A stretch of DNA of 64,000 nucleotides, taken from assembly GCA_900546745.1 (NCBI GenBank), contig URDT01000003.1, positions 125 through 64,124 of the forward strand. The letters run 5' to 3'. The DNA comes from an uncultured Mycoplasmatota bacterium. Its GTDB lineage: Bacteria > Bacillota_I > Bacilli_A > RF39 > UBA660. Positions 26,316 to 26,523 of this stretch are shown here, piece after piece. The number at the start of each line of letters is the position of its first letter. The first letter of the stretch is position 1. The translations under genes and the position numbers were made by a program. A model generated the notes under the pieces. That model was given only the letters and a program-made list of their open reading frames with translations, did no database searches and was not told the origin of the DNA.

Positions 26316-26344
26316 TTGACTTTTAAATAAAAAATGATTATTAT
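26316..26344 (+). promoter_or_regulatory. promoter of the recombinase leader (copy 1)
   Basis: TTGACT-17 nt-TATTAT. The same motifs and spacing occur at 31302-31330. Confidence 0.6.
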
Positions 26345-26416
26345 AAATAACCAATAAATGACAAGCAGTATCCGTCTTTTATTAGAAAGCGAGGTACATC
26401 TATGGTCAAATACATA
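26339..26416 (+). repeat. 78-nt block 100 percent identical to 31325-31402
   Basis: Direct comparison of the two leaders. Covers the -10, a bulged hairpin, the SD and the first five uORF codons. Confidence 0.9.
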
Positions 26417-26479
26417 AATTATTTAAATAAAAATTATAAAGTTATTTCAAGAGGAGTCAAAGGTATTAGTTTGAACTAG
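26402..26479 (+). CDS. leader peptide uORF (25 codons), copy 1
   Basis: GAGGT SD 6 nt upstream. MVKYINYLNKNYKVISRGVKGISLN. Reads through the 5' arm of the terminator and stops 6 nt before the 3' arm. Confidence 0.55.
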   Translation: MVKYINYLNKNYKVISRGVKGISLN

Positions 26480-26501
26480 TGCTTTTGTCTCCTCTTTTTT
26501 T
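26449..26501 (+). terminator. intrinsic terminator / attenuator upstream of the serine recombinase (copy 1)
   Basis: AAGAGGAGTCAA ... TTGTCTCCTCTT (12 bp, one T.T mismatch) followed by a T-run, 22 nt before the recombinase ATG. Confidence 0.7.
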
Positions 26502-26523
26502 GATATGAAATAGAGGTAAAAAG

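Follow-up and report, generated by a model that had tools for sequence, protein, structure and literature searches.

The DNA examined here is a 64,000-nt stretch of contig URDT01000003.1 from an uncultured Mycoplasmatota bacterium (the window; all coordinates are positions within it). It carries a mobile element in which the gene for a large serine recombinase is preceded by a leader composed of a promoter, a small hairpin, a short upstream open reading frame (uORF) and an intrinsic terminator. The parts of this leader were read directly from positions 26100-26700. They are listed below with the gene that follows them and a second copy of the leader that lies further along the window.

26316-26344, + strand: sigma-70-type promoter, TTGACT (26316-26321), 17 nt, TATTAT (26339-26344), matching 10 of 12 consensus positions
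26351-26372, + strand: segment at the start of the transcript, CCAATAAATGACAAGCAGTATC, made up of invariant or near-invariant columns in alignment A3
26368-26397, + strand: 5' hairpin, GTATCCGTCTTT paired with AAAGCGAGGTAC, 12 bp with two bulges, enclosing the ribosome-binding site of the uORF
26402-26479, + strand: uORF of 25 codons, ATG at 26402 and TAG at 26477-26479, peptide MVKYINYLNKNYKVISRGVKGISLN
26449-26501, + strand: intrinsic terminator, 21-bp stem (26449-26496) with three G.U pairs, loop TTGA (26471-26474) and T7 (26495-26501)
26512-28398, + strand: recombinase gene and its ribosome-binding site, AGAGGT (26512-26517), ATG at 26524, 624 aa
31302-31506, + strand: second leader copy, promoter 31302-31330, uORF 31388-31462, hairpin 31435-31479 followed by a T-run

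The promoter begins 5 nt past the stop codon of an upstream small open reading frame (ORF), and transcription is predicted to start near 26351. An earlier note on this DNA had described the promoter, a bulged hairpin bearing a Shine-Dalgarno (SD) sequence, the 25-codon uORF and the terminator, and each of these was found where it had been placed. Two details were revised. The terminator arms of 12 nt proposed in the note are too short, being only the outer part of a continuous 21-bp stem, and the uORF stop, which had been put 6 nt before the 3' arm, lies instead within the 3' half of that stem. RNA folding, one of the checks suggested in the note, was in favor of a structured leader: the whole of 26345-26526 (182 nt) folds to -44.9 kcal/mol, compared with -26.6 ± 3.8 kcal/mol for shuffled sequences (z score -4.8; 0 of 200 shuffles as good). 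The terminator stem contributes a predicted -27.7 kcal/mol, and its T7 tract is followed by 22 nt and then the recombinase ATG. A consensus scan of 7 kb found four terminator-like sites where 0.8 would be expected, 26449-26501 among them. Promoter-like hexamers per se occur at chance level in this DNA of 25% G+C (70 found and 60 expected by consensus scan).

The leader was compared across 80 related loci taken from genome assemblies (given L numbers below), all of them belonging to gut Bacilli that are uncultured and carry Tenericutes or Mollicutes-like labels; their recombinases are 59-98% identical. A T-run preceded by a hairpin of -15 to -29 kcal/mol was present in 48 of the 66 distinct leaders, or 49 leaders when the second copy in the window is included, and this module is thus found in about 70% of relatives. 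It sits 21-30 nt before the recombinase ATG, or 47-68 nt in one subgroup with an extra insert. For covariation analysis, which the earlier note had also proposed for homologous leaders, 36 of the leaders with hairpin and T-run were aligned. RNAalifold returned a 16-pair helix with compensatory two-sided changes in 12 of the 16 pairs. Paired cells amounted to 93.8%, compared with 85.8% in shuffles, and 0 of 500 shuffles reached the observed pairing or covariation. When the 3' partner was slid by 1-3 columns as a control, pairing fell to 46-62%.

The strand on which this structure acts could also be assigned. Two stem positions are mostly G.U, alternating with A-U; a G.U pair becomes an A.C mismatch on the opposite strand, which marks the hairpin as + strand RNA. 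With a covariance model built from the alignment, the score of the window site was 80.7 bits for the + strand as against 38.2 bits for the - strand. Across 855 kb (the window and the loci), matches to the model were confined to positions just 5' of recombinase genes, tandem second copies included, and the T-run is nearly invariant across the aligned leaders. By these comparative measures, the conserved hairpin is a sense-strand RNA structure with the anatomy of an intrinsic terminator. A permissive Rfam 15 scan of 25800-26700 found the tRNA alone, leader matches reaching 15-16 bits where the thresholds are 70-90.

The uORF is retained together with the hairpin. In 46 of the 49 distinct leaders, a uORF with an ATG start and a length of 15 codons or more (18-25) begins 5' of the hairpin and ends within it, and in 43 of these 46 an SD sequence lies 5-10 nt ahead of the ATG. 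When the 110 nt upstream of each hairpin were shuffled, such a uORF arose in 14% of cases, and in 1% if an SD sequence was also required. There are three exceptions: L010 (ATT) and L034 (ATA) differ by single start-codon changes with the frame still open, and in L066 a 1-nt deletion yields an ORF that reads through the hairpin and stops 8 nt beyond it. The ATG-to-hairpin stretch is only 8-21% G+C, and among 16 class representatives its uORF frame contained 0 stops in 231 codons, compared with 32 and 29 in the other two frames.

The encoded peptides, by contrast with this geometry, fall into ~16 unrelated classes (for example, ...RGVKGISLN*, ...KRSQRY*, ...EESKVLV* and ...KRCQ*). In every class the uORF stop lies 9-30 nt past the 5' base of the hairpin, and all three frames relative to the hairpin are used. 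In many hairpins just one or two frames are closed by a stop, and without exception the uORF runs in one of these. Stops in all three hairpin frames were considered as a designed feature and set aside, being present in 11 of 29 hairpins (null expectation 0.26) and hence not general. Given that the peptide and the frame vary and the geometry stays, selection appears to act on translation into the hairpin and not on the peptide. What is kept, to judge from this comparison, is translation into the hairpin, ribosome release there and a narrow range of ORF length. The proposal of the earlier note that uORF translation would prevent terminator formation is therefore strengthened by the retained geometry, which homologous leaders keep while peptide and reading frame change, as well as by the covariation and by the conserved promoter described next.

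In 27 of 27 representative leaders, a promoter of the form TTGACA-16/17-TAnnAT (9-12 of 12 positions matched) directly follows the small-ORF stop, and its -10 box ends 42-57 nt ahead of the uORF ATG. Since the gap of 21-30 nt between T-run and recombinase ATG is too short to hold a promoter, transcription of the recombinase gene must cross the terminator. Conservation within the leader is highest in CCAATAAATGACAAGCAGTATC, the ~22 nt with which the predicted transcript begins, whose near-invariance spans relatives with recombinases just 60-66% identical. The window holds two copies of this segment, one per leader (26351-26372 and 31337-31358). Its role may be that of an operator, of a processing site or of an RNA-binding site. 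A role for the leader as a trans-acting RNA was considered and rejected, no site complementary to CCAATAAATGACAAGCAGTATC being present within the window.

The 5' hairpin is less uniform. In the window its predicted energy is -9.5 kcal/mol (z score -2.6), and its 3' arm carries the GAGGT at 26391-26395. A hairpin around the uORF ribosome-binding site was obtained in 13 of 13 classes folded, with energies of -7 to -12 kcal/mol and z scores of -0.5 to -3.5. The SD sequence is in the 3' arm in the class to which the window belongs; in others it is in the loop, with the AUG in or next to the stem. Of the SD-sequestration tier of control put forward in the earlier note, the presence of a hairpin at this site in every class stands, but burial of the SD sequence itself does not extend to all classes and the stabilities are modest. 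A brake on leader translation is accordingly a plausible role for this hairpin, modestly supported by the predicted folds.

An antisense promoter-like sequence, TTGACT-16-TATAAT (26460..26433, - strand, 11 of 12 positions matched), was noticed inside the uORF and the 5' arm of the terminator. It is not conserved, many relatives matching at 5-8 of 12 positions, no better than shuffles, and it was discarded as a feature of the leader. It is probably fortuitous, although it could still fire in this copy.

These features point to a mechanism. The leader is probably a ribosome-mediated transcription attenuator of the direct-occlusion type exemplified by pyrBI, and the conserved layout, as reconstructed here, very probably controls the amount of recombinase made. 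Direct occlusion calls for a proximal terminator with no promoter downstream of it, an open uORF with an SD sequence, and overlap of uORF and terminator, and all three were found. The sequence parts, their conservation and the RNA covariation are shown by the comparison; from them we infer that the uORF is translated, that transcription ends at the hairpin, which way the effect would run and what kind of physiological signal it would follow. In the proposed scheme, the strong promoter at 26316-26344 would fire constitutively, and the terminator at 26449-26501 would end most transcripts, leaving a leader RNA of ~150 nt. A ribosome whose A site is occupied by a stop codon shields ~10 nt or more on the downstream side. 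One that had initiated at 26402 and reached the last uORF codons or the stop would therefore cover the entire 5' arm of the terminator; in every class, the 5' arm in full and the loop at the least would lie under a ribosome at the uORF stop. Were it present while polymerase transcribed the 3' arm and the U-tract, no hairpin would form and transcription would read through into the recombinase gene.

With a short uORF, of 18-25 codons, whose ribosome-binding site lies in a small hairpin, the first ribosome would rarely keep up with polymerase. The default state would thus be OFF, with a leak set by how fast ribosomes load on and traverse the leader relative to polymerase, and faster leader translation, compared with transcription, would raise the output. 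A further and much more doubtful step would be that the leader senses translation-transcription coupling in the host, that is, the supply of ribosomes and charged tRNA in relation to polymerase speed, and so licenses excision or integration of elements that occupy the CCA ends of tRNA genes.

Several points weigh against the direct-occlusion attenuator. Approximately 30% of relatives do without the module, so that the recombinase as such does not require it. Because the related leaders have common ancestors, the counts given above are of non-independent events; with this granted, the combination of uORF and hairpin is, on the alignments, a feature that persists through heavy sequence turnover. 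No recurrent antiterminator partner for the 5' arm of the terminator was found among 16 leaders folded after truncation at the loop, and no regulatory codon run is common to the ~16 unrelated uORF peptides. RNA polymerase runs ahead of the first ribosome in Bacillus subtilis; were these hosts to behave likewise, occlusion would need a polymerase pause. Pause motifs resembling TTNTTT are not universal ahead of the hairpin: TTATTT-type tracts were seen by eye in several classes but not all, and are expected by chance at 8-21% G+C. Finally, a comparable role for a leader peptide, that proposed for tet(M) of Tn916, was unsupported in a recent test (bioRxiv 10.1101/2021.03.24.436905).

Pairing outside the terminator suggests one other reading of the same parts. 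The 3' arm CUCCUCUU resembles an anti-SD sequence and could pair with AGAGG, and in several predicted folds the 3' arm and U-tract pair with the A-rich ribosome-binding region of the recombinase gene. The terminator might then be a constitutive brake or insulator, and the uORF would act after transcription, on RNA stability or on access to the recombinase ribosome-binding site; the SD-masking hairpin and mini-uORF of the L076/L077/L080 class, described below, point to a translational version of the same logic. However, the alternative pairings are short and weak beside a terminator of -20 to -29 kcal/mol, and neither the near-invariance of the T-run nor the constant placement of the stop inside the hairpin, as terminator occlusion requires, is accounted for in this way. 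We regard such a brake as unlikely.

Attenuators that sense a stalled ribosome share the same overall parts, namely a promoter, a short uORF with an SD sequence and then a terminator. In this design, known from erm, msrD, vmlR, tet(M) and trp, a ribosome arrested by an antibiotic, by starvation or by the nascent peptide triggers read-through, and one arrested at the last uORF codons would keep the 5' arm open. There is precedent on mobile elements in the published tet(M)/orf12 model of Tn916, which, as far as it is described in the source used here, ties leader-peptide control to mobile-element functions. Given the absence of conserved alternative pairing and of conserved codons, however, neither the trp-type nor the arrest-peptide design fits. 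The peptides are unconserved and written in three frames, leaving no arrest motif or regulatory codon run, and leaders folded without the 3' arm offer no conserved antiterminator pairing. A stall early in the uORF, moreover, would leave the terminator free and so lower expression instead of raising it. There is thus little likelihood that the leader works by stall sensing.

The unit from promoter to terminator might also be a gene in its own right, specifying a small RNA of ~150 nt or a micro-peptide, with the recombinase expressed by leak only. Such a unit would be self-contained, with a strong promoter and a strong terminator, and the first 22 nt of its transcript are unusually conserved. 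Against this, the peptide sequence is unconserved, the conserved 5' segment lacks a complementary target in the window, Rfam yields no match, and the unit is always immediately 5' of a recombinase gene on the same strand that lacks a promoter of its own. Such a function is improbable.

Least credible of all is a DNA site (an attachment or accessory site, an operator, or a promoter joint in the style of Tn4451): the inverted repeat is a 48-bp imperfect palindrome, about the size of a serine-integrase attachment (att) site, beside a large serine recombinase gene in an element that, like Tn4451, carries a Mob_Pre relaxase, and L003 retains its 3' half only, but the element boundary (junction 25934/25935) lies 515 nt upstream of the palindrome, after the tRNA CCA, in 26 loci with 10 tRNA types, the conserved G.U pairs and the strongly asymmetric model scores on the two strands are those of RNA, the T-run is conserved, and both promoter hexamers lie together inside the element, ~380 nt from its left end, which excludes a promoter assembled at a joint of the Tn4451 type. 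The half hairpin of L003 was likewise dismissed as a sign of recombination within the hairpin, being a single deletion variant (window 26303-26495).

Leaders that depart from the common layout bear on the direct-occlusion attenuator as well. Those without the module have a plainer promoter, for example TTGTAA...TAAAAT in the L035 class, which from its sequence is apparently weaker. In the leader of the L076/L077/L080 class (~110 nt before the recombinase ATG), represented by very few sequences, the T-run is lost and a CTCTC...GAGAG hairpin covers the recombinase SD sequence; a mini-uORF of six codons (MVFLYF*) ends right before this SD-masking hairpin. Such a leader may be a translational version of the same control. 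Both kinds of variant, so far as their sequences can be read in these terms, fit the idea that uORF translation favors recombinase expression. L070 differs from L076/L077/L080 in that its mini-uORF start is ATA.

In L032, L034, L042, L045, L048 and L059, an extra module of 20-45 nt (...TTTAAAGTGCCAAACATATGAAAGGAAGTG...) lies between the terminator and the recombinase ATG, and it holds an in-frame ATG 7 codons 5' of the usual recombinase start. This module is repeated in L079, and a different repeated motif is present in L029.

The second leader in the window is intact and precedes a paralogous recombinase gene (31507-33444). This gene is interrupted by one in-frame stop (32290-32292) at a codon that is Gln in the first copy; the stop marks either a pseudogene or a sequencing error.

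The 624-aa product of the first gene contains Pfam Resolvase, Recombinase and Zn-ribbon domains, which identify it as a large serine recombinase, and it matches a PHROG integrase with an E value of 2e-113. Homologues at ~66% identity number in the thousands, more than 8000 being seen. Its relationship to named recombinases is distant: matches to the XisF and CcrB models are far below cut-offs, the best protein matches among phage and plasmid integrases are below 31% identity, and no close annotated relative was found by DNA comparison in phages or plasmids. The features that surround the gene are listed below.

25861-25934, + strand: tRNA-Thr(GGT), the attachment junction, with the element starting at 25935 after the encoded CCA
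25935-30918: element 1, ~5 kb, comprising the small ORF, the recombinase gene, a Mob_Pre relaxase gene (28643-30058) and an ORF (30135-30767)
26039-26311, + strand: conserved ORF of ~90 aa, always between the left end of the element and the recombinase promoter
30912-30918 and 42706-42712: tRNA-3'-like GGCACCA, marking the junctions of tandem elements
30919-42712: element 2, ~11.8 kb
42713-43085: truncated third element copy, keeping only the small ORF (42807-43085)
43231-44112: IS4/IS701-like transposase fragment, just past the truncated third copy
44517-44593: tRNA-Glu, following the transposase fragment

Chromosomal genes for a RecD2 helicase, a polysaccharide deacetylase and a CDP-alcohol phosphatidyltransferase lie 5' of the tRNA-Thr gene. 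When the window was compared with the related loci by BLAST, similarity always began at 25908-25969 and continued through the 90-aa ORF into the recombinase gene. In most loci with enough flanking sequence, a tRNA gene ends ~100 nt 5' of the small ORF, always in the same orientation, and at least 10 tRNA types were represented (Thr, His, Gly, Cys, Leu, Ala, Lys, Phe, Trp and Arg). Alignment of the junctions from 26 loci placed the start of the shared sequence exactly after the encoded CCA (...CCA|GATTGATAGGAAACTCGAAC...). As read from these alignments, the elements of this recombinase family are inserted precisely behind the CCA of many different tRNA genes, and tandem arrangements are frequent. 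In a large survey of serine recombinases (PMC10083194), no mention of tRNA targets was found, and the literature searched appears to contain no description of a large serine recombinase family directed at the CCA ends of many tRNA genes. This targeting is perhaps a more surprising result than the leader.

The small ORF that accompanies the recombinase has 242 unnamed homologues and paralogues in the window at 30975-31298 and 42807-43085. Its AlphaFold model is confident (pLDDT 95) and of alpha/beta type; searches of Pfam, NCBIfam, PHROGs and PDB folds gave no match. The product may act in directionality or in targeting. A small hairpin, CTAACTA-GAAA-TAGTTGG followed by T7 (25981-26005), directly follows the attachment junction and is conserved in relatives. 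It resembles a terminator that would stand in for that of the tRNA gene and protect the element against tRNA read-through. The ~30 nt between this hairpin and the ATG of the small ORF leave little room for a promoter.

Large serine recombinases drive many phages, transposons and mobilizable elements and are favored tools for genome engineering; to our knowledge, little is known of how their expression is kept low. Here, a compact, conserved and readily testable cis-regulatory module precedes one large family of them, abundant among gut Bacilli that are uncultured and have small genomes (their labels being RF39-, Tenericutes- or Acholeplasma-like). If the direct-occlusion attenuator is correct, occlusion attenuation would operate in low-G+C Bacilli, in which the coupling of transcription to translation is considered poor, implying a pause or another synchronizing step. 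Should the sensing of host coupling also hold, an element living on tRNA genes would read the state of the translation machinery to time its movement, and a 60-nt module consisting of a uORF in a terminator would be enough for this without a protein or metabolite sensor. The natural variants, with their start-codon changes, frame shifts, module-less leaders and SD-masking form, amount to a ready mutant series, and the module could serve synthetic biology as a small translation-dependent transcriptional gate.

Among known systems, the element as a whole recalls Tn4451 and Tn4453. These are small mobilizable elements with TnpX, a large serine recombinase, near one end and a Mob/Pre relaxase, TnpZ, and their tnpX promoter comes together across the joint when the element is circular. 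The element in the window is likewise small, with a large serine recombinase gene near one end and a Mob_Pre relaxase gene. It differs in that the complete promoter and the attenuator are internal and the insertion target is the CCA end of tRNA genes; the recombinase has only a weak N-terminal match to TnpX.

The leader resembles the trp, his, leu and thr attenuators in its order of promoter, leader peptide and intrinsic terminator before the first structural gene. Attenuators of the trp/his type rely on regulatory codon runs and on mutually exclusive 1:2, 2:3 and 3:4 hairpins, such that a stalled ribosome gives read-through; here, conserved codons and alternative pairing are absent, and a stalled ribosome should give termination. 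Relative to the leaders of erm, cat, msrD and tet(M) orf12, the peptides are variable and the downstream gene encodes a serine recombinase instead of a resistance determinant. Among mobile elements, the tet(M)/orf12 leader of Tn916 is the nearest system. Read-through there ultimately raises expression of the transfer and recombination genes of Tn916. The tet(M) leader is without sequence similarity to the leader described here; it acts directly on a resistance gene and only indirectly on a tyrosine recombinase, and it responds to tetracycline. As far as the work of Su, He and Clewell (1992) is summarized in bioRxiv 10.1101/2021.03.24.436905, the two are alike in having a short leader ORF that overlaps terminators on a mobile element (Ptet/orf12), and the proposed logic, in which faster leader translation leads to read-through, is also alike.

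The closest parallels are found in Escherichia coli. In the pyrBI leader, polymerase pausing that responds to UTP sets the coupling, and the genes under control are biosynthetic. Experiments on the spacing of stop codon and terminator have shown that a ribosome terminating within a few nucleotides suppresses the terminator: with tR2, shifting the stop from 28 bp to 5 bp before the terminator lowered termination from ~90% to <10% in a translation-dependent manner, and for terminators located in an ORF's initial 100 bp termination remains efficient, the first ribosome not having caught up (PMC4824070). Such constructs match the mostly-off state and translation-dependent leak proposed here, but they are synthetic, belong to another organism and are not natural regulators. 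The pyrBI attenuator, which lies inside its 135-bp leader ORF (PMC4824070; Roland, Liu and Turnbough 1988, as cited there), is a natural one and, in that account, is like the present leader in that the terminator is in the leader ORF, the ribosome blocks the hairpin, no antiterminator is needed and termination is the default.

Full-text literature searches for leader control of this kind of a serine recombinase or integrase found no paper describing it, in agreement with the earlier note, which was aware of none. The general mechanism, pyrBI-type attenuation, is already known, and its use on a serine recombinase appears undescribed; what is new is a family of RNA leaders and a class of regulated gene, governed by a known principle. 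Compared with pyrBI, the uORF described here is of 18-25 codons and stops inside the terminator stem, its ribosome-binding site is held in a hairpin, and the target is the site-specific recombinase of a mobile element in low-G+C Bacilli.

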